64,000 bases of DNA from an uncultured Enterobacteriaceae bacterium (GTDB lineage: Bacteria > Myxococcota_A > UBA9042). Positions within the stretch are counted from its first letter, which is position 1, and each line of letters opens with the position of its first letter. Shown here one piece after another: positions 5,859 to 43,998 of the stretch. The position numbers and the translations under genes were made by a program. The DNA lies in contig CAYHHL010000001.1 in the NCBI GenBank assembly GCA_964356325.1, positions 57,246 through 121,245 of the forward strand, read 5' to 3'. Below the pieces are notes generated by a model. That model was not told where the DNA came from. It made no database searches and saw nothing but the letters and a program-made list of their open reading frames with translations.

Positions 5859-7018
5859 ATGACGGCCATCCTCGACTGCCCAGTGCTGCCCCTTCACCCT
5901 CTCCCGCGCGTCACCGGCGATCTGCCCGGTTGCGGCGGGCAGCTTCGCGTCCAGGTGGAAGACTTCGAAGTCGAGGAGTTGCCGCTGTACGAACCGTGCG
6001 GGCAGGGCGACCACCTCTACCTCTGGCTCGAGAAGATCGACGTGCCCGCGGAGACCTTGCGCCGTCACGTCGCGCGCAGCCTGGGTGTGCCGACGATGGA
6101 CGTGGGCATGGCCGGGCTCAAGGATCGCCGCGCCGTCACTCGCCAATGGGTCAGCGTGCCGCGTTCGGCCGAAGCGCGCGTGCCCCAGATCGACACCGAT
6201 CGCATCCACGTCCTGCGCGTCGTCGCCCACCGCAACAAGCTGCGCACCGCCCACCTGGCCGGCAACCGCTTCCGCATCCGCATCCGGGGCACGCAGCCCG
6301 AATCCGCCGAACTGGTCGCGCGCAAGTTGGAACGCTTGGCAGTGACCGGAGTTCCGGACTTCTTCGGCAGCCAGCGCATGGGCATCGGCGGGTCGACGTT
6401 CGCCGCCGGTTGGGCCTTGCTGCACGGCGCGGAACGCCTCACGCGGGTGCGCACGCCGGACGACACCGTGCACACGCTGCACCTCGAAGATCGACCGCTG
6501 CGTCGGCTGGCCGCTTCCGCGGTTCAGGCCGAGGTGTTCAACCGGACCGTCGCGTGTCGGCTGGAACGTGGCGTGTGGACACAGGTCTTGCCCGGCGACG
6601 TGTGCCGCAAGGTGCTGTCCGGCGGCACGTTCGTCACCGATGATCCAGAGCGCGAACAACTCCGGGCACTCGAAGGCGAACTGACCGTGACAGGACCGAT
6701 GTGGGGACCGAAGATGATCCGTGCCCAGGACCAAGCTGGTGAACTCGAACGGGAAGTCCTCGCTGGCATCGGCTTGACCGAGGCGCATTTCGCGACCTTG
6801 GGACACCTGGCCGAAGGGACGCGCCGGCCGGTGGTCGTGCGCCCGGGCGAATTGCAGGTCCAGGCCAACGACGATGGAGTGACGGTGGCTTTTACCCTGC
6901 CGGCGGGCGCATTTGCGACGGTGCTGCTGCATGAGCTGATGGGCCCGAACGAAGCGGAGGACTCGGCCGCGGCGCAAGAACTGGCCGGCGACGACGTGGT
7001 GAGCGAGGAGGGCCCGGC

Positions 7019-7028
<10 letters not shown>
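5859..7028 (+). CDS. truD: tRNA pseudouridine(13) synthase TruD.
   Basis: It carries the TruD signature GMAGLKDRRAVTRQW, and its length and N-terminus match TruD. The start was chosen at the internal ATG 5859. Confidence 0.8.
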
Positions 7029-10375
<3,347 letters not shown>

Positions 10376-10471
10376 GTTTTTTCGGAGCCCGGAGCCGGAG
10401 CCGGAGCCGGAGCCGGAACCGGGACCGAACCCGAACCCGAACCCGACCCCGACCCCGAACCCGAACCCGGG
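10376..10471. repeat. Hexanucleotide microsatellite: (GGAGCC)x5 followed by about 8 copies of (GAACCC)/(GACCCC).
   Basis: The repeat is read directly from the sequence. It sits in the 3' intergenic space between two convergent genes. Confidence 0.9.
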
Positions 10472-11803
10472 CTAAGGTTTGGCCGCTTCCTCGATCAGCC
10501 TGCTGACCACTTCGTCCAGCGCGTCGTTGACCCCCGACTCCTCGTCCAACAGCACCTCGCCATTGACCAACACCAGCACGCCTGCCTTCTTGTCCGCGAG
10601 CAGCCAGGCCTCGGCGTGCCAGCCGTAGTCGCCGGCAAACGCGGCGTACAGTTTGCCAATGGTGTCCAACTCATACTCGTACCAGGCGAAGCCTTGACCG
10701 CCGGCATTCTCGATGTCGCCGAACTGCTCCTTGAAGATCTCGACGACGCTCGCGGGCTTGAGCACGCTCACGCCGTCCACGCTGCCGCCGAGCGACATGA
10801 CCGCGATGATGCGCGTGAAATCCTTGACGTTGGTGTACAGCGTGCCGCTCGGGTAGTACGGATAGCCGACCTGATCCAGCGTCACGTAGTCGTCGTTTTC
10901 GTCGATGGCATGCGGGGTCGCGAGCTTCTTGGCGTCGATGTCCTTGAGATGCCAGCCAGTCGCAGTCATGCCCAGCGGTTTGAAGATCTTGTCCTGGCAG
11001 TACTGCTCGAATGTCTGCTTGGCCACGATCTCGACGACATGCGCGGCCAAGCCGATGCCGACCGAACTGTACTGCGAGGTCGTGCCCGGCGCCTCGTCGA
11101 GGAAATTGTCCTTCGAGTACAAGTTTCCACCTTCCTTGAGGTAGTTCGCGTCGAAATCGGCAAGGGCCAGGGTCGGATCGCCAGGCAGGTCGAATTGCGC
11201 GTACAAGCCGTCCCGATCGTTCAGGGAGGACGTGTACGTCAGCAATTGGCGAACCGTGATCTTGCCCGCGGCTTTCGGGTTCTTGACCGGGAACGGCAGG
11301 TACTTGCTCACGTCCTCGTCCAGGCTCAGCTTGCCGGCTTCGACCTGTTGCATCACCGCGATCGCCACGACCGTCTCGGACACGCCCGAGATGCGCATGA
11401 GGTGTTCGAGCGTCAGCGGCGTGCCCTCGTCGACGTCGGCTTCGCCATAAGCCTTGCTCCACGTCAGCTTGCCGTTCTTGACCACGCCCGCGGCCAAGCC
11501 GGGTACACCGATGAAGTCCAGACGGTTGGTGATGAAATCATCCAAGGACTCAACAGGCTCTACATCGGCCTTGGCATCGGCGCCGGTCTGGCCCGCGTCC
11601 TTGCCGACCGCGCCGTCCTTGCTGGCGTCTGCACCGGCGTCTGCGCTGGCATCGGTGGGGGCCTGGGCGTCCGCGCCTGCGTCCTGTGCTGTGACGACGT
11701 CTTTGGCGGCCGCTGCGGTCGTGGCTTGCGATCCGGAAGTGCCGCAGCCGAAAGCGAAGGCTGCGCAAACGACGAACGTGAAACGAATGGGCAACCGGGA
11801 CAT
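10472..11803 (-). CDS. Beta-lactamase-fold (PF00144-like) serine-hydrolase-family lipoprotein, possibly catalytically atypical.
   Basis: The segment RISGVSETVVAIAVMQQVEAGKLSLDEDVSKYLP aligns to the class-C/PBP4* S-x-x-K region. The signal is MSRLPIRFTFVVCAAFAFGCG. A long Ala/Asp/Lys-rich linker follows. Confidence 0.7.
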   Translation of the reverse strand: MSRLPIRFTFVVCAAFAFGCGTSGSQATTAAAAKDVVTAQDAGADAQAPTDASADAGADASKDGAVGKDAGQTGADAKADVEPVESLDDFITNRLDFIGVPGLAAGVVKNGKLTWSKAYGEADVDEGTPLTLEHLMRISGVSETVVAIAVMQQVEAGKLSLDEDVSKYLPFPVKNPKAAGKITVRQLLTYTSSLNDRDGLYAQFDLPGDPTLALADFDANYLKEGGNLYSKDNFLDEAPGTTSQYSSVGIGLAAHVVEIVAKQTFEQYCQDKIFKPLGMTATGWHLKDIDAKKLATPHAIDENDDYVTLDQVGYPYYPSGTLYTNVKDFTRIIAVMSLGGSVDGVSVLKPASVVEIFKEQFGDIENAGGQGFAWYEYELDTIGKLYAAFAGDYGWHAEAWLLADKKAGVLVLVNGEVLLDEESGVNDALDEVVSRLIEEAAKP

Positions 11804-11865
11804 AGATCTACCTCGGTGGTGGACGGAAATCGCTGTGTCGGCAGAAATCACATTGTCGGCAGAAA

Positions 11866-13380
11866 TCAGCGTGTCGGCGGATACGGCGGCGGCGGCGGAA
11901 TGCCCGGCGAGTCCATGGTCACCTGATGCGCCTGGAACAGGTTGACACCACGCAACTTGTGCAACTTGTCCGCGGCGTCCTGCAGGATGCGCTGGACCTC
12001 GGCTCGACGGTTTGGTACGTAGGTCAGCGAGATCGAGGACATTTCTAGCGTTTCAGCGGTCACGCCTTCGACGCCACGTTTCAAGAAGTCCGCGGCCTCC
12101 TGGCAGTTCGCGAACCGATCCTCGCGTCGCTTCTGCGTGCTGATATGGATGAACTGCGCGATGTCTTCAGGAATTTCTGGATCGAGGAGGCGCGGATCCG
12201 GCATGGCCTCGGTCATGTGCATGCCGAACAGGGCTTGGACGTCATCGGCGACGAACGGCAACTCTTGCGTGCTCAGCTCGTACGCCATGATGCCCAGCGA
12301 ATACAGGTCACTACGCCCGTCCAGCTGCTGCGCCATGATCTGTTCGGGGCTCATGTAGTAAGGCGTGCCGATGACCTTGCCGTCGCCCTCGGTCGCACTG
12401 CCCACCTGCACTGCGATGCCAAAGTCCAACAACTTCACGCGCTTTTCGGCGGTCAGGAACGCGTTCGAGGGCTTGATGTCGCGGTGGATGAGGCCGCGCT
12501 CGTGCGAGTAGGCCAGCGCCGTCGCGATCTCGATCAGGATGCGCCGCACCAGCGACCACTCCAGGCGCTCGCCCCGATCGACGACGTCCTCCAACAGGGT
12601 GCCGCTCAACTTCTCCATGACGATGAAGTGCGTGCCGTACGCCTTTTCCGTGTCCAGAACCCGAACGATGTTCTCGTGGTTCAACTGGGCGACCATGCGC
12701 CCTTCACGGCCGAAATTCTCCGCGAACGCCGGGTCGAACACCATCGCGTGTGACAGCATCTTGAGGGCGACCGGAATGCCCAGGGTCGGGTGCATCGCTT
12801 CGAACACCGTCGCCATGCCGCCCGAGCCAAGTCGGCCCAACACCTCGTATTTGCCGACCTTGCGGATGCCTTTCGCTTCCAACAACCGTTCGCCGACCAG
12901 CGTCGTCAGGAAGCGCGCGGCCTGGGGATTCCTCGCGCACAGTTCATCCAGCGTCTTCTGGCCCACCCGCAGCGCGCGCACTTCGGTGACCGCGAGCACC
13001 GTGGCATTGCGCAACTCCTGCGTAACCAAGGACATTTCGCCGAGGATGGCCGGCGATCGGATGAGTCGCTCGAACGTGACCTCGCCCTCGTCGTTGCGCA
13101 CCACGACGTTGACCGTGCCCTCGTCGAGCACGAACATCTCGTGGCCCATCGCGCCTTGCCGCATCAGTTCGAAGCCGGGCTTGAACGTGACCGGTTCCAT
13201 GGCTTCGCGCAGAAGCGCCGTGCTCTCCTGGCCCAAGCTCGAGAAGATCGGCAGTGAAGCCCAGGAACGCCCGGCCTGCGGGACGACGGGCGGCGTGAAC
13301 CCTGCAGACTTGCGCAGGATTTGCGTTGCGGCGTTATCCGTTTGCGAAGATGCGCCGGGCTGGGGATTCGAGGAAGTCAT
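11866..13380 (-). CDS. Ser/Thr protein kinase with an N-terminal cyclic-nucleotide-binding domain.
   Basis: The cNMP-binding segment ...GEMSL...RNATVLA... is followed by the kinase motifs VALKML, HRDIKPSN, DFGIA and GTPYYMSPEQ. Confidence 0.85.
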   Translation of the reverse strand: MTSSNPQPGASSQTDNAATQILRKSAGFTPPVVPQAGRSWASLPIFSSLGQESTALLREAMEPVTFKPGFELMRQGAMGHEMFVLDEGTVNVVVRNDEGEVTFERLIRSPAILGEMSLVTQELRNATVLAVTEVRALRVGQKTLDELCARNPQAARFLTTLVGERLLEAKGIRKVGKYEVLGRLGSGGMATVFEAMHPTLGIPVALKMLSHAMVFDPAFAENFGREGRMVAQLNHENIVRVLDTEKAYGTHFIVMEKLSGTLLEDVVDRGERLEWSLVRRILIEIATALAYSHERGLIHRDIKPSNAFLTAEKRVKLLDFGIAVQVGSATEGDGKVIGTPYYMSPEQIMAQQLDGRSDLYSLGIMAYELSTQELPFVADDVQALFGMHMTEAMPDPRLLDPEIPEDIAQFIHISTQKRREDRFANCQEAADFLKRGVEGVTAETLEMSSISLTYVPNRRAEVQRILQDAADKLHKLRGVNLFQAHQVTMDSPGIPPPPPYPPTR

Positions 13381-13470
13381 CGGGCGCCCACGCGAAGAGA
13401 CCGGCGGCGTGCCAGTGGGCGGACTTGTAGCGCGGCCGACCCGCAGCGGCAAGCGCGAAGGCCTGCCTTG

Positions 13471-17114: not shown

Positions 17115-17411
17115 ATGAAGATGACGACGATGCTCAAGACGCTGGGCGTAGCTGTCCTCGGCCTTGCAGTCGGCGCGACCGCGGCAAGTGCCACCCCTGA
17201 CCACAGCGCCGAGGCCGGCAAGGCCGGTTGCGGTGGCAAGGGCGGCTGCGGCGGTTCCGGCGGGTGCGGCGGCAAGGACGCAAAGGCCGGCGACAAGGCC
17301 AAGGCCGACAAGGGCGCCAAGAAGGCCGACGACAAGAAGGCCGACGACAAGAAGCCCGAGGCCGACAAGAAGCCCGAGGCCGACAAGACGCCGGAAGCCC
17401 CGAAGAAGTAA
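17115..17411 (+). CDS. Small secreted protein of 98 aa with a G-C-G-G repeat block and a Lys/Asp/Glu-rich tail.
   Basis: AAGGAG lies 7 nt upstream of the ATG. The signal peptide is MKMTTMLKTLGVAVLGLAVGATAASA. The repeat block reads GCGGKGGCGGSGGCGGK, and the tail contains KADDKK and KKPEADK repeats. A hairpin terminator follows. Confidence 0.6.
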   Translation: MKMTTMLKTLGVAVLGLAVGATAASATPDHSAEAGKAGCGGKGGCGGSGGCGGKDAKAGDKAKADKGAKKADDKKADDKKPEADKKPEADKTPEAPKK

Positions 17412-37076: not shown

Positions 37077-37403
37077 ATGGCCGCGATCGATACCGCCCGG
37101 ACCGAGAAGCTGCGCCGAGATCTGGCGCGCAAAGGCATGGAAGTCAACGAGAAGCTGACCAGGATGTTGGCCGCCCAGAACGCGACGCTGACGACGATGA
37201 AGTTGCCGAGCGAGGAGGAGCCGGGCCTGAAACCGCACGAGAAGTTGCGGCGCTATCTCGACCAGATCGTGCGCGCCCAGAAGCGGCTCGGCACCGGTGC
37301 GTGGGGGGCTTGCATGCATTGCGCGGCGGAACTGGCCGAGGCGGCGTTGGACGATGCGCCGTGGCTCGAACTGTGCGCGAAGTGTGCGGCCGACGAGAGC
37401 TGA
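37077..37403 (+). CDS. DksA/TraR-family C4 zinc-finger protein.
   Basis: GAAGGAG lies 6 nt upstream of the ATG. The C-terminus carries CMHCAAEL...CAKC. A coiled-coil-like N-terminus precedes it. Confidence 0.65.
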   Translation: MAAIDTARTEKLRRDLARKGMEVNEKLTRMLAAQNATLTTMKLPSEEEPGLKPHEKLRRYLDQIVRAQKRLGTGAWGACMHCAAELAEAALDDAPWLELCAKCAADES

Positions 37404-37601
37404 CCGCGGCTTGATCGCGGAGCCTGGTCGAATCCGAAACTATTGGCAGATGGCCGGCTTGGCGCACTTCTGGTCGGTGGCGCCGCAGTCCAGGCCCTGG
37501 GCGCACTGGCTGTTGGCGCAGGCTTCGCCTTCCTTGGCCAACGCCTTGCCCACGGAATCGCGCTGTAGCCAAGCTTGGAACGCCCGCAAGCCCGCCCATC
37601 G

Positions 37602-38714
37602 TCAGCGCGAGGACTCGCGTCCCAACACCGCTTGGCCTATCGGGTCCAGCGCGCGTTCGAGCACCACGGTCCGCGTCGGAAAGGCCATCGCTAGCCCCGC
37701 CGCCTGGAATCCAGCGTGGATCGCCAGGTTCACCGCGTGGTGCACTTCGCCGGCCAGATTGGCGTCCGGCACCTTGTAGAGCACGCGTACGCCCAACGCC
37801 GAATCGCCGAAGTTCACGAACATCACGGAGAATTCAGGGTGGATACCCGGTTGCGCCGCCAACACCGCCCGCACCAGATCCACTGCCTGCAGCACCTGCG
37901 CCGGTGTCGAACCATAGGTCAGCGATAGCAGGAAGTCGCGCACCAAGCCATCAGGATGACTGTGGTTTTCAATAGTCGCCTCGGCCAGCTTCTTGTTCGG
38001 GATGACGGTGCAGATGCCGTTGCCCTGCAGCAGCCGGGTCGAACGCAGGCCAATCGCCGTCACCTTACCGAAGTGGCCATCCACCTTGATCCAGTCGCCG
38101 ATGCTGAACGGCCGATCCGTCATGATCTGCAGGCTGCCCAACAGGTTGCCGAGCGTCTCCTGCGCCGCCAGCGCCACTGCCAGACCGCCGATGCCCAGAC
38201 CCGTGACCACCGAGATCACATCGAAACCCGCGCGTTGCAGCACGGTGACCGCAAGCAGCAGGGCGAACACGATCTTGGCGGTGACCCGGGCGAAATTCAG
38301 CACCGCGACGCTGACCGGCGGGGCCTGACGCGCCGCCCAGGGCACCATCAGTTCCTCGTACACCACGTCGACCGCGCGCAGGAGCATGGCGCCGATCGTC
38401 ACCGCCACAGCGATGGCCAGGGCATCGACGCCAAACCGGTGCGTGCTTTCCGGCATCGTCAGGATTTGCAGGGAGATGTGAACCGAGCCGAAGAACACCA
38501 GCACGGCGGTGGGCCGGGCCAGGCGTTGCACCAGGCGGTCGTCCAACGTCGTGGCGGTACGCGCCGTCAGCTTGGTCACGAAGCGCGTCATCAGGAACGC
38601 GCCCAACCGGCCGAGCAGCCAACCCAGCATCAGCACCAGCGCGACGACAAGCCAAGTCCGCGCCGGATTGCCTGCGAATTCACGGGCGAACCATTGATTC
38701 ATCGGCATCGTCAT
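37602..38714 (-). CDS. MscS-family mechanosensitive channel.
   Basis: There are TM helices and the MscS beta-domain motif DGHFGKVTAIGLRSTRLLQGNGICTVIPNKKLAEATIEN. The ATG overlaps the stop of the radical-SAM gene in an ATGA arrangement. Confidence 0.85.
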   Translation of the reverse strand: MTMPMNQWFAREFAGNPARTWLVVALVLMLGWLLGRLGAFLMTRFVTKLTARTATTLDDRLVQRLARPTAVLVFFGSVHISLQILTMPESTHRFGVDALAIAVAVTIGAMLLRAVDVVYEELMVPWAARQAPPVSVAVLNFARVTAKIVFALLLAVTVLQRAGFDVISVVTGLGIGGLAVALAAQETLGNLLGSLQIMTDRPFSIGDWIKVDGHFGKVTAIGLRSTRLLQGNGICTVIPNKKLAEATIENHSHPDGLVRDFLLSLTYGSTPAQVLQAVDLVRAVLAAQPGIHPEFSVMFVNFGDSALGVRVLYKVPDANLAGEVHHAVNLAIHAGFQAAGLAMAFPTRTVVLERALDPIGQAVLGRESSR

Positions 38715-40210
38715 GCGGCACGCTCGCGGGTGGGAGCGAGATCTTGGCGCACGGCGAGCTCGAGGGCGGCGATGCGCAGGATCCGGGGTAGAACCGCTCG
38801 GAATACTTCACAGTACGGCGAGCGACCGTCGACGTGGCCTTCGCGGCGGTACAGCAGCAGGGGACAACCGCCCGCGCAACTCGGCTTCCAGCGGCAGGCG
38901 TTGCAGGTAGAGTTGCCGGATTCGCGGCGAAACTGCGTGAATTGGCTCTGGGATCGCGCCATCGTCAGCAGGCTTTCCGGTCGGATCGGCTGCGTGCCGG
39001 GGTGATGCAAGGCAGCTTGGCAAGGGCTGATTTCGCCCGATTCAGCGATCGCGACGTACGAGTCGCCCGCGCCACAGGCCTTGGCGATCGGGCGCCACGG
39101 CTCCAGGTCGCAGAACTTGTGGCTGGCGCGAAAACCGCTGACTTCACCGCGACCTACCGCCTGTTCAATCAGATCGTAGCAAAGGCCGAACACCCGCTGC
39201 ACGCGCTGCAAGGCTTCACCCGACAGGATACCATTGGAATCGTTCGTTTGGATCTCTGCCAGTTGCGCGCCGTGGCGATCGTCCAGCACGCCCTGACCCC
39301 ACTCGAGGTCGCGCACTAGGCTGTAGCGAAACCACAACTTGCGTTCGAGCAGCCAGGCCGTCAGCGCGGGCAGACCGTCGAGGTTGCTGTCGCCCACCGT
39401 GATGAGGATGTACGGCCGGATGCCCGCGTCGAGATAGGTCTGCAAGCCCGCCTGAAGTCTGGCGAAAGACGATCCACCTCCCTTGACCGGGCGCATCACG
39501 TCCTGCACGCCGTCCAGCCCGTCGATCGAGACCGAGACGTGCACGCCGTGCGCCAGGATCCACTCGGTTGCCCCCGGGGGCACCACCGTGCCGTTGGTCA
39601 GGATCGCCGCCGAGAATTTCACCCCGTGACTTTGGCAACTTGCGGTCGCATCGGTGAAGAACTGCTGGATGTTGGCAAAGCGCAGCATCGGCTCGCCGCC
39701 TGCGAAACGGACGTTGATGCGATCCACTGCCCCTGAAGCCGCGGTCGCCTCGATCGATTGCAGCACCCGGGCCGCGACGTTGACGTCCATGTGCGTGGCA
39801 GACTTGTGGATATAGCAGTACGGACAAGCGAGGTTGCAGGCGTTGGTCACATGCAGCCAGGCGTTGAACACCCGCTCCTGCTTGCCGTCCGGCCGCCACG
39901 GCCGCACGCCCGGCGACAGCACGAAGCCGTTGCGCCAGAGCAGAGGCAGTTCAGCCAGCAATCGTATGATTTCTTGGGGATCGTCGCTCGCCAGTTCGGC
40001 TGCGATGTCGGCGGCTGAGCGTCCGTCCGCCGCGTGCAACAGCCGCAACGCGCGCGGCGTGAGCAAGGCCAAGGCGTCGTGACCGTTGGGATTATGCGCG
40101 AACGATCGACCGCGCGCGACGCCTTGGTACAAGCCCGGCGCCCGCTGGATCGGCAGATCCGCCCACGTGTCTTGCGCGGGCGCCTGCCACGGCCGCTTCA
40201 CCGTCGCCAC
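38711..40210 (-). CDS. Radical SAM/SPASM-domain enzyme with an N-terminal PqqD-like RiPP recognition element.
   Basis: The CxxxCxxC motif reads HVTNACNLACPYCY. The C-terminal SPASM cysteines are CDLEPW...CGAGD...PCQ...CNACRWKPSCAGGCP...YCEVF. The N-terminal ~90 aa (SFAHNPNGHDALALLTPRALRLLHAADGRSAADIAAELASDDPQEIIRLLAELPLLWRNGFV) have a PqqD/RRE-like pattern. The start is a GTG at 40210 or 40201, or an ATG at 40264. Confidence 0.8.
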   Translation of the reverse strand: MATVKRPWQAPAQDTWADLPIQRAPGLYQGVARGRSFAHNPNGHDALALLTPRALRLLHAADGRSAADIAAELASDDPQEIIRLLAELPLLWRNGFVLSPGVRPWRPDGKQERVFNAWLHVTNACNLACPYCYIHKSATHMDVNVAARVLQSIEATAASGAVDRINVRFAGGEPMLRFANIQQFFTDATASCQSHGVKFSAAILTNGTVVPPGATEWILAHGVHVSVSIDGLDGVQDVMRPVKGGGSSFARLQAGLQTYLDAGIRPYILITVGDSNLDGLPALTAWLLERKLWFRYSLVRDLEWGQGVLDDRHGAQLAEIQTNDSNGILSGEALQRVQRVFGLCYDLIEQAVGRGEVSGFRASHKFCDLEPWRPIAKACGAGDSYVAIAESGEISPCQAALHHPGTQPIRPESLLTMARSQSQFTQFRRESGNSTCNACRWKPSCAGGCPLLLYRREGHVDGRSPYCEVFRAVLPRILRIAALELAVRQDLAPTRERAA

Positions 40211-41478
40211 TAGTTGTTGCAGTCCCAGGAACAGTCGCTGCTGCAATCGCTCGAGCAGTCCCATGAGCAGTCGCTGCTGCAGTCGGCGGAACAGTCGCTG
40301 CTGGCGCAATCTGTTGCCGCAGCGCAGTCCCAACCACTCGAATCACCAGAACTTTCACCGGACGAACTGTCGCCGGCCGCGCAGTCGAAGTTGCCAGCGG
40401 CCGTGCTGCCGCCCGTGTCGTACTGGTCCCAACTGCTGTTGCCCGCGTCGTAACCAGCCATCGCGTTGTCGTCCCAGCTCGCGGTCGAGAAGTCGCGGTC
40501 CATCACATCGCTGACGCCGCCCAACTGGTGTGAATAGCTGCCGATGTCGTCCGCGTTGCCGATGGGCGCGCCGTTGTAGTTGATGACCGTGACCGGGGCG
40601 CCGTAGCTGGACCAATGGCTGCCCAGGTAGCCAGCGCCGTATCCCCAGTGATGTCGCGGGCTGATGAGCGCATCCAGCACCATCAAGTTCACGAACGTGT
40701 CCATAGGATCCCGATAATACACGCTCCAAGGGTCGTAGTAGGGACTCGCCCAGCCACTGCGGGCGTAGACCGGGGCATTGCGCAGGTGGGCGTCGCGGTC
40801 GCACTGGCTCTGGCCCAGGTCGCGCACGTCCTCGCCGCTCGGGCGCACCACCTGCACGTCGGCGGGGTCGGACTCCAGGAGCGCGGTCGGAAACGCCCTC
40901 TGCAGGCCGCCTTGCACCTTGGCCGCCACCTCGCTCAGCACGTTGCGGTACATCGGCACGAGTTGCGCGTCAGCCAGGGCCTTGCCGATGCGATCCTTGG
41001 CTTTTTCGATGTCCTCGCCCTCGCGCGGTCGCAACTCGTCGATGCGCGCGCCGAACGACACCACCGCGTGCGGCTCGGTCTTCTTGGCCTTGGCACGCAC
41101 GGTCACTTCCAGCAGGCTGTGCAGGCCTTGGCCCTGGTACTCGAACACCGCGCGCAACATCTTGAATCCACCGGTGAACCGGGATGCGGATCGACGCATG
41201 GCCGCCACCAGCAGGTCGGCGTCGTGGTCGCGATCCTCGAGATCCTGGAAGACCACCTCGTCGTCGACCACGAGCGTCACGGCGTTGGTGATCCCGGCGA
41301 TCTGCAAGGCTTTCTGCACCTGTTCGGTCAGCGCTAGCACGTTCTGGGTAATCAGCAATTCACCCGTGCGCAAGTCGACGTCCGAGCCGAACGCGGTCTT
41401 GACCTTGTCCCAGAAGCTCGGCTGGCGAAACACTTCCTCGCCTTGGATGTAGAGACGGACCTGTGCTGTGAGGCGCAT
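40210..41478 (-). CDS. Protein of 422 aa with an unknown N-terminal domain, a Tyr/Trp/Gly-rich middle region and a C-terminal (D-C-S-x)n / W-D-C repeat tail. Candidate substrate of the adjacent radical SAM enzyme.
   Basis: AAGGAG lies 8 nt upstream of the ATG at 41478. The tail reads ...NFDCAAGDSSSGESSGDSSGWDCAAATDCASSDCSADCSSDCSWDCSSDCSSDCSWDCNN*. The stop TAG overlaps the GTG of the rSAM gene by 1 nt. Confidence 0.65.
   Translation of the reverse strand: MRLTAQVRLYIQGEEVFRQPSFWDKVKTAFGSDVDLRTGELLITQNVLALTEQVQKALQIAGITNAVTLVVDDEVVFQDLEDRDHDADLLVAAMRRSASRFTGGFKMLRAVFEYQGQGLHSLLEVTVRAKAKKTEPHAVVSFGARIDELRPREGEDIEKAKDRIGKALADAQLVPMYRNVLSEVAAKVQGGLQRAFPTALLESDPADVQVVRPSGEDVRDLGQSQCDRDAHLRNAPVYARSGWASPYYDPWSVYYRDPMDTFVNLMVLDALISPRHHWGYGAGYLGSHWSSYGAPVTVINYNGAPIGNADDIGSYSHQLGGVSDVMDRDFSTASWDDNAMAGYDAGNSSWDQYDTGGSTAAGNFDCAAGDSSSGESSGDSSGWDCAAATDCASSDCSADCSSDCSWDCSSDCSSDCSWDCNN
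40213..40400. repeat. 12-nt periodic tandem DNA repeats encoding the DCSx tail. The plus-strand unit is approximately GCAGTCGCTGCT.
   Basis: The units are read directly, for example gcagtcgctgctgcaatcgct / gcagtcgctgctgcagtcggc / gaacagtcgctgctg. Confidence 0.7.
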
Positions 41479-41502
41479 CGGCAGGACTCCTTGACCGTTG
41501 GC

Positions 41503-42505
41503 TTATTTGCGATCGACGGCGATGCGCAGTTGCTGGGCTCGTTCGGTCAGGGACCGCACCCGGGCGATGCTCTCGCGCGTCGGTGCCTGGCTCTTGATTT
41601 CCTTGAGGCTGGTGTCCACGGCGCTGGCCTGATCGACCAGAGTCGTGTAATTCGGATGGCTTTCGTCCAGACCCATCCAGACGTCGGCCATCGTCGCTTC
41701 CGGGCCGGCCAGCACCTTCTTCAGTTCCTCGCCCAGCCCGGTGTCGCGCTGCTTGCGCCGCCAGAATACCCAGCCGGCGACGCCCAAGGCCGCGATGATC
41801 ATGAAGTAGAGCAAGCCATTGCCACCGGAGGACTGTGCGGGCGGCAGGGCCTGGGGTACTTGCACCGAAGTCGTCGTGGCCAGCGCGCCGTCGTTGCCGC
41901 GAGCCGGGGCAGTGTTCTCGTACGGTTGCCCGGACTTGTAGCGCGCGTAGGCTGCGGACATCTGGCCGGACGCCCTTGTTGGCGTTGGCGTGCTGGAATT
42001 CGTTCCATGACATCTTGCCAACCACGTTCTGGCCGACGACGTTTTTCGTACGAGTCAGCGCGGTTGCCACTTCATTGGTCAAGGAGCGCATGCGATCGAG
42101 CGGCTGGCCCCCTTGCGACATCACGCGATTCAGCACCGCCTGCTTGTCCGCCGAGGTCAGGGCATTGCTGCGCAGGTCCCACTTCGGCCCGTTGGTCGAG
42201 ATGAGCACGTCCTTGCCCGACATGCCCAGGTCACCGTACATCGCCGCGAAATCGTTCGGATCGTCAGACTCCTTCATGACCACGAGATAGACCTTGGCGC
42301 CTGTGCGCTGGGCCGTCTCCTTGGCCAGCGTGTCGAGCTGAGCCTTGACGTTGGCGTCGAACGAGCTGGGCTGCACCGCGCCGGCCTGGCCCTTTTGCCG
42401 CAGGATGTCCGCGACCTGGCGGGGATATGCCCAAGCGGGCAGGGCGGACAACCACACAAGCAGGGCCAGGCAGCGCACCAGGAAAACGGGCAATCGGCGG
42501 GTCAT
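41503..42505 (-). pseudogene. TPM-domain (YgcG/TLP18.3-like) protein gene with an apparent frameshift between the TPM domain and the TM plus C-terminal region.
   Basis: Frame A (42505..~41975) has GGAGG 5 nt upstream of the ATG, a signal peptide and the TPM segment AKVYLVVMKE...DVLISTNGPKWDLR. Frame B (42021..41503) holds the TM helix GLLYFMIIAALGVAGWVFW and a coiled C-terminus. No stop separates the two frames. Confidence 0.5.
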
Positions 42506-42558
42506 CGGGCCTCCAGCATCAACTGGGCCGGCAGGGTACGGCCGCGCGTCGTCCGGCG

Positions 42559-43998
42559 TCAATTCAGGCGCAGGCTGGGACTGCGCCGGACCACCAGCGC
42601 CTGGTCGGGGCTGACGATCGAGCCCTTGGGGCTCCAGAACATCAGGAACTTCGACTGGCTCTGGCACGCCTCGGGGGTCAGCTTGCCGGACTTCGCGCAC
42701 GGGGTCGTGTCGTCCACGAGGTCATGCAGCTTGCCGTCGGCCTCGTCGGTGTGCCATAGGCCCAGGAAGTGCCCGAGTTCATGGGCCAATACCACACCCC
42801 AGACGTCGCCTGCGGTCGTCGAGGTCGGCCCTAGCTTGACCACCTGCTGCCATTGCTCCGGATCGATGACGATGGCCATGCCGGTCATGCGCGACCCCGC
42901 CAACCCGGGCACGCCGCCGAGCTGTGACAACCCCGCGGCAATAGGCGCTTTGTTGTCCGTCAGCGCCGCAGTGATGACCAGCGTGGCCGCCGTCGACTTC
43001 GGGTTCAGCTTGCCGGTCGCCTGATACACCTGGGCCAGCTCGTTGCTGGCGTCGCCCGCCAACACATTGTCGATGAAGTGGAATTTCTTGCCGTCGTCGC
43101 CCGTGATGTCATAGACGTGCACTGTGCCCAGCTTGAGGTTCGCCGGCTTCCAGATCTGCTCGACACGGGCGCGCATCTGCAACCATTGCGGCGACACGGC
43201 AAACGTCGCGGCGGTCGCGGGCACGCCGTCGGCCAGGTAGACGTCCAGGTCGAGCGTGACCGGTTGCTGGCCCGGCACCTCACCGCGCGCGAGCACGCCG
43301 AAGTGCAGCCAGGAGGGCGACGTCTTGCCGGCGTAGAGCGAAGGTTGCTGATCCGTGCGCAGAAAGCCGAAAGTCCACGGCCCCGCGACCACGCTGACCA
43401 ATGGCGACATGCCGATGAGCGCCGTCGCCCCGCCGATGCCCGGATACGCACGGTTGTACGAGTGCTCCCAATCCAATGAACTGAGGATCTGCAGCTTGTT
43501 CGGCGAGATCAGCGTGTCGGCCCAGACGTAGTGATCGAACGGCGTGGGACCGATGTCGCGCGCGACCAGCAGCACGCCGGTGTTCTTGTTCGGGATGTTG
43601 AAGACCTTGGTCGGCGCACCGTTGGAACCCACCTGCACCAGGCCGAGATCGAGCCACTGCTGGTCCGCGCGCAGGTTGGGCCCGGGATGGCAGCCTTCGT
43701 CGATGCGGCTGTCGCCATTATCGTCAGTCTGGTTGCCGCACGATTCCGGCAGGATGGGGCCCGTGTCCGCGTTCTTGACGTCCGTCTTGGCGCCGGTGTC
43801 GGTCTTGGTGTCCGTCGCGGCATCGGTCTTGGCACCGGTCTGGGCGTCCAGCTTGGCGTCGGTCGCGGCGTCGGCAGCCCGAGCCAGCCCGGCGTCCAGG
43901 CCACCCACAGCCTCGCTGGCCGGACCGCAGGCCAGCGCCGACAGCGCCACCAGGGCGGCAGCGAGCAAGGCGTGTGGTTGGACAAGACCTGGAAACAT
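42559..43998 (-). CDS. Zinc metalloprotease lipoprotein, metzincin (M43 pappalysin/cytophagalysin-like).
   Basis: HELGHFLGLWH gives HExxHxxGxxH, and a Met-turn region lies downstream. The lipoprotein signal is LVALSALACGP. Confidence 0.8.
   Translation of the reverse strand: MFPGLVQPHALLAAALVALSALACGPASEAVGGLDAGLARAADAATDAKLDAQTGAKTDAATDTKTDTGAKTDVKNADTGPILPESCGNQTDDNGDSRIDEGCHPGPNLRADQQWLDLGLVQVGSNGAPTKVFNIPNKNTGVLLVARDIGPTPFDHYVWADTLISPNKLQILSSLDWEHSYNRAYPGIGGATALIGMSPLVSVVAGPWTFGFLRTDQQPSLYAGKTSPSWLHFGVLARGEVPGQQPVTLDLDVYLADGVPATAATFAVSPQWLQMRARVEQIWKPANLKLGTVHVYDITGDDGKKFHFIDNVLAGDASNELAQVYQATGKLNPKSTAATLVITAALTDNKAPIAAGLSQLGGVPGLAGSRMTGMAIVIDPEQWQQVVKLGPTSTTAGDVWGVVLAHELGHFLGLWHTDEADGKLHDLVDDTTPCAKSGKLTPEACQSQSKFLMFWSPKGSIVSPDQALVVRRSPSLRLN

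Follow-up and report, generated by a model that had tools for sequence, protein, structure and literature searches.

The stretch of DNA analysed here, which we call the window, comprises 64,000 nucleotides of contig CAYHHL010000001.1 (assembly GCA_964356325.1, positions 57,246 to 121,245 of the forward strand), deposited as an uncultured Enterobacteriaceae bacterium and placed by GTDB in the Myxococcota_A (UBA9042). Our subject is a pair of genes on its minus strand: one encodes a 422-residue protein, here called the carrier, that ends in a tail of Asp-Cys repeats, and the other encodes a radical SAM (rSAM) enzyme with a SPASM domain and a predicted N-terminal peptide-recognition (RRE) module. 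The features of this pair are the following.

40210..41478, minus strand: carrier protein gene, 422 aa, stop codon TAG at 40210-40212 (open reading frame list and translation)
40444..41478, minus strand: carrier N-domain, aa 1-345, conserved, fold class unassigned (phmmer, AlphaFold2)
40314..40443, minus strand: Gly/Ser/Asp-rich linker with two isolated aromatic-Asp-Cys motifs (codon table)
40216..40313, minus strand: periodic array made of TDCAS and then seven 12-nt x-D-C-S units in register
38711..40210, minus strand: RRE-radical SAM-SPASM maturase (RRE predicted), 499 aa from a GTG start, 517 aa in the public gene call

The predicted structure indicates that the carrier is a folded N-domain followed by a disordered Cys/Asp tail, the predicted local distance difference test score (pLDDT) of its AlphaFold2 model being ~90 for aa 1-340 and <35 for aa 351-422. 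Public collections hold an identical protein (P0001) and 48 related clusters, every one of them unnamed or labelled 'hypothetical', and mostly from metagenome-assembled genomes (MAGs) of uncultured Myxococcales. Neither Pfam nor NCBIfam gave a match to the window protein, to any of the 46 family members (at E<=1) or to the carrier of the sister clade described below. A search of PDB sequences returned a chance match only (E=0.53), and a Foldseek comparison of the confident N-domain model with the PDB gave a best E of 0.039 with TM-scores <=0.30, leaving the fold unassigned. The carrier has neither a signal peptide nor transmembrane (TM) segments and does not match TIGR04222. Its N-domain is as well conserved as its tail, with a mean column identity of 55% and numerous invariant residues. 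A conserved segment, W335-D337-Y343, comes shortly ahead of the tail.

The last 58 residues of the carrier read FDCAAGDSSSGESSGDSSGWDCAAATDCASSDCSADCSSDCSWDCSSDCSSDCSWDCNN, followed by the stop, and they hold ten of the protein's 11 Cys, each with an Asp before it. Seven units (aa 394-421, window 40216-40299) keep a strict x-D-C-S register with a period of four residues or 12 nt, and 5' of them lie one five-residue unit, TDCAS, and the isolated motifs F364-D-C366 and W383-D-C385. An earlier note on this DNA had described a tail encoded by near-identical 12-nt tandem units at 40213-40400, and this we can confirm in part. A tail with a 12-nt tandem period inside a coding region is indeed present, as both Tandem Repeats Finder and the codon register attest, and its periodic part occupies 40216-40313; the interval was too wide, 40314-40400 being irregular Gly/Ser/Asp linker, and the units are diverged rather than near-identical. 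At period 12 Tandem Repeats Finder reports 40232-40301 (5.8 copies, 65% matches), at period 24 an array between 40220 and 40303 with 80% matches, and at period 36 40220-40296 (2.1 copies, 82%, score 105), while a repeat search finds 36-nt copies spaced 12 nt apart at 61-83% identity. The 12-nt blocks themselves share a mean pairwise identity of 57%, with 16 nt as the longest exact repeat, and the near-perfect tandem DNA copies that characterize hypermutable repeats are thus not found in the window array. Blocks coding for the identical four residues have only 8-12 of 12 bases in common, and synonymous codons differ between units. The unit that had been quoted, GCAGTCGCTGCT, occurs as one exact copy and two copies with one mismatch (40231, 40267, 40291), and a search of the whole window at <=2 mismatches gives 19 matches against 13.4 expected. 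Across window 39210-41956 the independent Logan assembly L072 agrees at 100% identity, so that the array length is reproducible and no assembly artefact of this record.

How old is such a tail, and what maintains it? The earlier note had named two outcomes that would speak against its proposal, a tail absent from orthologues and a repeat number identical in all related genomes, and both are contradicted: all 46 full-length relatives carry an Asp-Cys tail, and the number of units ranges from 7 to 15, with a mode of 9. Of the two isolated motifs, F364-D365-C366 is invariant in the family and W383-D-C385 nearly so, the alignment showing D365 and C366 as invariant and D384 and C385 as nearly invariant. 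Of 556 tail-region Cys in 58 proteins, 96% have Asp at position -1 and 82% have Ser at -3, and at -2 Ser (48%) alternates with Trp/Phe/Tyr (41%; W 24%, F 14%, Y 3%). In 321 Asp-Cys units from 32 genes, Asp is encoded by GAC/GAT in 220/101 and Cys by TGC/TGT in 278/43 units, Ser comes from the TCN as well as the AGY boxes, and 30 of the 32 genes mix synonymous codons inside their own tail. Since synonymous sites vary freely and Asp and Cys are fixed, it is the amino-acid pattern that is maintained and not the DNA repeat, and the alignments thus point to a tail that is old and under selection at the level of the protein. A recent neutral expansion of a functionless coding microsatellite could draw on the long perfect tail repeats of some relatives (38-60 nt, e.g. 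60 nt in L015 and 56 nt in L033), but we find this explanation scarcely credible, given that the tail is found in all orthologues down to 31% identity, that Asp and Cys are invariant amid abundant synonymous variation, and that 40 of the 46 relatives carry 8-10 Asp-Cys units. In view of this narrow range, the unit number is constrained and does not vary freely.

The number of units nevertheless changes, and it changes in frame, as had been supposed. The length polymorphism was seen in related lineages, the window lineage being represented by one sequence in two assemblies of the same DNA, and it takes the form of exact in-frame 24-nt indels that distinguish strains otherwise nearly identical. 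For L001 and L035, whose carriers are 433 and 425 aa long, an alignment of 3,402 nt shows 0 mismatches and a single 24-nt tail indel; for L025 and L036, with carriers of 410 and 402 aa, one of 3,333 nt shows 9 substitutions and one 24-nt indel, which sits within a perfect 3x24-nt array. Both pairs come from lake metagenomes. The proteins P0082 and P0085 are one DCASS unit (5 aa) apart. Among genomes the longest perfect tail repeat ranges from 10 to 60 nt, the 16 nt of the window lying toward the diverged end, and since in DNA sequence the window array ranks with the most diverged, it is less prone to slippage than the arrays of some relatives. In the mechanism that we propose, the unit number would drift by in-frame gains or losses of 12 or 24 nt between short direct repeats, and selection would preserve Asp, Cys and Ser and keep the count near 8-10. 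The carrier family resembles coding minisatellites and contingency repeats in having an in-frame array that varies in copy number among nearly identical strains. It differs from them in that the window units are ~57-65% identical, so that slippage should be infrequent, and in that the changes never shift the frame, which leaves no room for on/off switching.

We now turn to the rSAM enzyme. It looks intact, since its CX3CX2C motif (CNLACPYC, aa 125-132) and eight SPASM-region Cys, namely those of CNACRWKPSCAGGC and four more at positions 367, 379, 397 and 467, are invariant in 31 of 31 orthologues. The seven-Cys SPASM pattern for two auxiliary clusters (C-x(n)-G-x4-C ... C-x2-C-x5-C-x3-C ... 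C) is present, and Pfam recognizes Radical_SAM at E=1.4e-13 and SPASM at its gathering score of 21.5. The candidate start codon GTG overlaps the stop codon of the carrier (TAGTG), whereas the gene as publicly annotated (P0243, 517 aa) opens with ATG 40264, within the tail-coding region; this longer form would overlap the last 55 nt of the tail array in another frame, and, if it is real, unit indels would also alter the N-terminus of the enzyme.

The AlphaFold2 model of the enzyme (pLDDT 91.5) has strands at 19-49 and three helices at 51-92 ahead of the barrel. Foldseek pairs it best with CteB, whose N-terminus is an RRE (E ~5e-21, TM-score 0.6-0.7, 470-479 of 498 columns), and after CteB with anSME, TigE, ChlB and SuiB; CteB (5wgg, E=1.7e-15) is also its nearest sequence match in the PDB. 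A PqqD match in Pfam was not found at E<0.01, and the L042 orthologue gave weak helix-turn-helix matches only. In NCBIfam the top match is PapB (NF047865), at 120.3 bits against a cut-off of 340, and the second is QhpD (TIGR03906), at 106.6 bits against 453, both below the equivalog level. The same two profiles lead for the L042 rSAM, which is 46% identical (PapB 105.9 bits). Further sub-threshold matches of the window enzyme include the cyclophane maturases YhhB, AmcB, FxsB and XyeB, sactisynthases, and HxsB at 71 bits. Its orthologous group comprises ~90 clusters at >=41% identity, labelled 'radical SAM protein' only, below which identity falls steeply to 34%.

Several candidate homes for the enzyme were tried and rejected. 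Against the Cys-every-fifth (CefB) system it scores 78 bits, with a cut-off of 600. No maturase of the 'CXXX repeat peptide' system is among the 25 best NCBIfam matches listed for it, and a literature search for 'CXXX repeat' together with radical SAM found nothing. Formylglycine formation of the anSME type was set aside, as the anSME motif, C/S-x-P/A-x-R, does not occur in the tail. The closest out-group rSAM/SPASM enzymes (30-34% identity; L070 990-5371, L071 1139-5458) were uninformative as to a related substrate: each is preceded by a ~900-aa tetratricopeptide repeat (TPR) protein without Cys-rich ends, and no substrate is evident there.

The carrier and the enzyme travel together. A genome scan gave 34 loci, and in the 31 of them with room for synteny to be read by tblastn the order upstream partner, carrier, rSAM, with the rSAM directly downstream of the carrier, is found in 29. 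The exceptions are L006 and L009, which belong (L009 probably) to a sub-clade with L003, L005 and L007, where 4.4-5.4 kb of unrelated genes separate carrier and rSAM; in L003 the insertion (9386-13406) encodes a DEAD-box helicase, an OYE-type flavin reductase and an MBL-fold protein. L009 has no rSAM within 8 kb downstream and may hold a larger insertion. In L030-L033 (31-34% carrier identity) and in L042 the carrier-rSAM pair is kept where all other synteny is gone. Two MAGs, L004 and L026, were deposited as 'Klebsiella pneumoniae' and 'uncultured Enterobacteriaceae', yet they have the full Myxococcota-type synteny and are probably mislabelled or mis-binned.

More telling is what happens to the tail beyond the close family. 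A phmmer search with the N-domain alone against 1.84 billion representatives gave 157 matches at E<1e-3, and a scan of metagenomes was made with an alignment of 12 closer superfamily sequences. Distant members keep the N-domain and have different tails. In a sister clade (L037 2794-6149; L043-L069), mostly from soil and rhizosphere metagenomes, the tails are built of (G/S)SSC with a period of 4, and the gene order is a 193-aa partner, an MbnB-like enzyme of the MNIO family, a TM/coiled-coil protein and the carrier, the first three lying immediately upstream of the (G/S)SSC carriers in 21 of the 22 loci with enough upstream sequence. This MNIO falls in the MbnB/TglH/ChrH family (Pfam E=3e-47) with BufB/HvfB as its nearest NCBIfam match, below cut-off, and the clade looks like an undescribed family of MNIO protein substrates. 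In the window there is no MNIO, a tblastn search of its full length with the sister-clade MNIO and partner having come back empty. Other proteins with the same N-domain have Cys-free tails (P0108, P0112, P0124, P0137, P0120, P0138 and P0140; loci L040, L041, L073 and L074), made of GGFFGGGDD, GGDFDGG or YDDGGG repeats or rich in W/D/S or in His, many of them ending in -DW or -D. Neither enzyme accompanies the three Cys-free-tail relatives that were sampled, and where 5-6 kb of flanking sequence is available (L041, L073) neither rSAM nor MNIO lies nearby. The carrier of L046 (6001-7158) has a single, C-terminal Cys (…GDSSSC) and a TM/coiled-coil partner upstream, and by tblastn neither an MNIO nor an rSAM lies within 6 kb of it.

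In these genomes, then, a change of Cys motif goes with a change in the class of Cys-modifying enzyme, and the enzyme is gone where the Cys are gone. Such co-switching is expected if the tail is the substrate, and it is our strongest argument that it is. The earlier interpretation of the tail as a possible rSAM substrate is thereby supported, with strong backing from comparative genomics in both synteny and the co-variation of tail and enzyme, and we infer that the carrier tail is the substrate of the adjacent rSAM. The earlier note had also offered an alternative, an unmodified metal-binding low-complexity Cys/Asp tail; the rSAM would then be directed at something else. Cys and Asp are classical metal ligands, and the acidic Gly/Asp/aromatic tails that occur without a maturase suggest an ancestral role for the acidic tail itself. 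We nevertheless regard this as the weaker reading and as very unlikely: the carrier-rSAM pair outlasts the loss of all other synteny, the enzyme changes to an MNIO exactly where the motif changes to SSC and vanishes with the Cys, and the out-group rSAMs stand in unrelated contexts.

What might the enzyme do to the tail? PapB joins the sulfur of Cys to the carbon adjacent to the carboxylate of Asp/Glu, which must lie C-terminal to the Cys, and it accepts C-Xn-D with n=0-6 as well as the C-terminal carboxylate of the peptide (PMC9413430; PMC12373016). For 549 of the 556 tail-region Cys an Asp/Glu is found before the next Cys, as PapB chemistry requires, and for this reason we favour C-x-x-D thioether rings as the chemistry, by analogy; six last-Cys exceptions, the …DCNN of the window included, stop 1-3 residues from the C-terminus. 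For concreteness, the rSAM, with its predicted RRE module and a SPASM domain for two auxiliary Fe-S clusters, would most likely bind the carrier and move along the tail. Each Cys sulfur would be joined to the carbon beside the carboxylate of the following Asp (C-x-x-D), and the last Cys to the C-terminal residue, giving a chain of about ten small thioether rings. On balance we lean towards this picture of a two-part carrier whose tail is thioether-cross-linked by the rSAM and which serves as a modified protein, not as the source of a released peptide. The locus is best described as ranthipeptide-type chemistry in a new form, on a full-size carrier protein, with a presumed mechanism.

A number of points weigh against thioether cross-linking as we picture it. 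The rSAM lies far under every NCBIfam equivalog cut-off, so that the type of reaction is an extrapolation; PapB natively acts on C-X3-D, whereas the motif here is C-X2-D; and with an Asp right before every Cys, another pairing is possible, or a role of Asp in recognition alone. The Trp/Phe/Tyr of alternate units could be the true radical target, and a folded 'leader' of 340 residues is unlike known precursors of ribosomally synthesised, post-translationally modified peptides (RiPPs). As to the copy-number changes, two of the three strain-level indel cases rest on short-read metagenome assemblies, and the L035 contig stops ~100 nt past the gene. Finally, the gene of the upstream partner is frameshifted in the window, which could mean that the system is decaying here or that the assembly is in error.

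The rSAM could instead modify the tail by another chemistry, such as sactionine formation (S to C-alpha), aromatic cyclophane or Cys-Trp cross-links through W/F/Y, or Cys oxidation. The aromatic residues at position -2 of alternate units, the cyclophane maturases and sactisynthases among the sub-threshold profiles, and the rank of anSME as second-best fold class would all fit such a reaction. We hold it to be unlikely, though a rival of some substance: Ser takes the place of the aromatics in about half of the units, while Asp and Cys hardly ever change; for each of two enzymes that are 46% identical, thioether synthases of the Cys-to-Asp/Glu type fill the top two profile ranks; and the recognition motif of anSME is missing from the tail.

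A further question is whether the cross-linked tail stays where it is made. If the N-domain were a giant leader, the tail would be cut off and exported as a free peptide, as in a classical RiPP pathway, and a maturase with a (predicted) RRE is indeed typical of leader-dependent pathways; moreover the window and many close loci have a gene for a zincin-like metalloprotease two genes upstream. That gene is missing from many loci, however, and no transporter or peptidase is conserved beside the pair in L030-L033 and L042. The N-domain, at ~340 residues, is confidently folded and conserved like the tail, and it is also found with Cys-free tails and without any maturase. We therefore think release as a free peptide improbable. 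Thioether cross-linking of a retained tail agrees better with these observations: since the N-domain is as conserved as the tail we favour a modified protein, and since it is folded, occurs also without a maturase, and has no conserved protease or exporter at the distant loci, the tail probably stays attached to the carrier, a cleaved RiPP being less likely.

Two neighbouring genes complete the arrangement.

41503..42505, minus strand: upstream partner gene (signal peptide, soluble domain, TM helix, cytoplasmic coiled helix), frameshifted (tblastn)
37602..38714, minus strand: MscS-type mechanosensitive channel (Pfam MS_channel domains)

The partner gene is found upstream of the carrier in the close family, and a protein of the same architecture occurs in the MNIO sister clade. 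It is intact in L001 (333 aa, 6941-7942). The window copy is split by tblastn into frame -1 (42505-41981) and frame -2 (41964-41506), which places the frameshift between 41964 and 41981. The Logan contig L072 stops at 41956, 8 nt short of this zone, and a true pseudogene is therefore just as likely as a misassembly or an indel within the population. The start codon ATG of the MscS gene overlaps the rSAM stop by 4 nt (38711-38714), and an MscS gene follows the rSAM in most close loci and is missing from the distant ones; a functional link to the system is uncertain. Neither a promoter-like site nor a minus-strand terminator turned up in a scan of 37400-42800, a result only weakly consistent with the carrier region being one transcription unit.

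The window contains other tandem repeats in coding sequence. One, at 43798-43874 (period 12 nt, 6.4 copies), lies in the N-terminal low-complexity part of the metalloprotease-like open reading frame, and Tandem Repeats Finder lists two more at 10383-10469 and 17217-17392, namely a hexamer array (~13 copies) and a set of overlapping periods of 9-18 nt with much AAG/GCC.

The closest known parallel is the PapA/PapB (freyrasin) system, a ranthipeptide system of Paenibacillus polymyxa in which PapA has six C-X3-D motifs (PMC9413430, PMC12373016). The likeness lies in a radical SAM/SPASM maturase paired with tandem Cys...Asp motifs, PapB being the best profile for the window rSAM. The window enzyme is not an equivalog, however, the spacing in the window is C-X2-D with an additional Asp directly before each Cys, the candidate substrate is the tail of a 422-aa protein with a folded 340-aa domain rather than a short leader-core peptide, and the host belongs to the Myxococcota rather than the Firmicutes. 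In the maturation of the gamma subunit of quinohemoprotein amine dehydrogenase (QHNDH), the rSAM/SPASM enzyme QhpD installs several Cys-to-Asp/Glu thioethers in QhpC, a polypeptide that stays within a functional protein, and this offers a precedent for a modified protein as opposed to a secreted peptide. QhpC is small and non-repetitive, and qhp dehydrogenase subunit genes are absent from the window neighbours examined (carrier, TM/coiled-coil protein, MscS, metalloprotease-like protein). CteB, which acts on CteA (the SCIFF peptide of thermocellin), has the RRE-rSAM-SPASM architecture that is predicted for the window enzyme and makes thioethers on a Cys-rich peptide; the window rSAM is ~19% identical to it, and SCIFF precursors are peptides of ~45 residues without Asp-Cys periodicity. 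HxsA is a larger protein with short C-terminal tripeptide repeats, paired with the radical SAM/SPASM maturases HxsB and HxsC, and the juxtaposition of a repeat-tailed protein and an rSAM/SPASM enzyme recalls the window, as does the sub-threshold HxsB match. It differs in its His/Ser repeats without Cys/Asp and in its two paired rSAM enzymes, and the carriers are unrelated in sequence. A literature search for rSAM systems with Cys/Asp repeats, or in Myxococcota, found nothing.

As for MNIO systems of the MbnB/BufB type, a 2025 survey proposes that MNIOs modify the Ser/Gly/Cys-rich tails of TIGR04222 membrane proteins and those of long bufferin-like (bufferin/oxazolin) precursors (PMC12452194). 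Here too a RiPP-type enzyme would act on the Cys of a full-size protein's low-complexity C-terminal tail, and in the sister clade just such an MNIO, with its partner, stands beside the (G/S)SSC tails. The window locus has an rSAM and no MNIO, and its carrier has no signal peptide, TM segment or TIGR04222 match; the present cytoplasmic carrier family is not described in that survey.

More generally, and with considerable reserve, we may picture the N-domain as a scaffold for protein-tethered cross-linked tails with interchangeable maturases and a membrane-anchored partner, the tail serving as a protein-bound metallophore or as a redox or structural cofactor rather than as a secreted natural product. 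Asp-Cys-Ser units would then be handled by radical SAM enzymes, Ser-Ser-Cys units by MNIOs, and Cys-free acidic tails by neither. We regard this extension as possible but doubtful. If true, it would define a new class, the 'ribosomally synthesised, post-translationally modified protein', with a tunable repeat number.

A family like this one is easily overlooked. Neither Pfam nor NCBIfam has a model for it, its members go by the name 'hypothetical protein' only, and because genome mining for RiPPs seeks short precursor peptides, a 400-residue carrier with a substrate tail is invisible to it. If our reading of the tail is correct, the carrier would give thioether-forming radical SAM enzymes a substrate with naturally occurring C-X2-D repeats, of relevance to enzymatic peptide stapling, and the 24-nt indels between near-identical strains would amount to a natural variant series in 'ring number'. 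It would also enlarge the small set of RiPP-type enzymes that mature proteins instead of peptides, and it would mean that one protein scaffold has recruited two unrelated classes of Cys-modifying enzyme.

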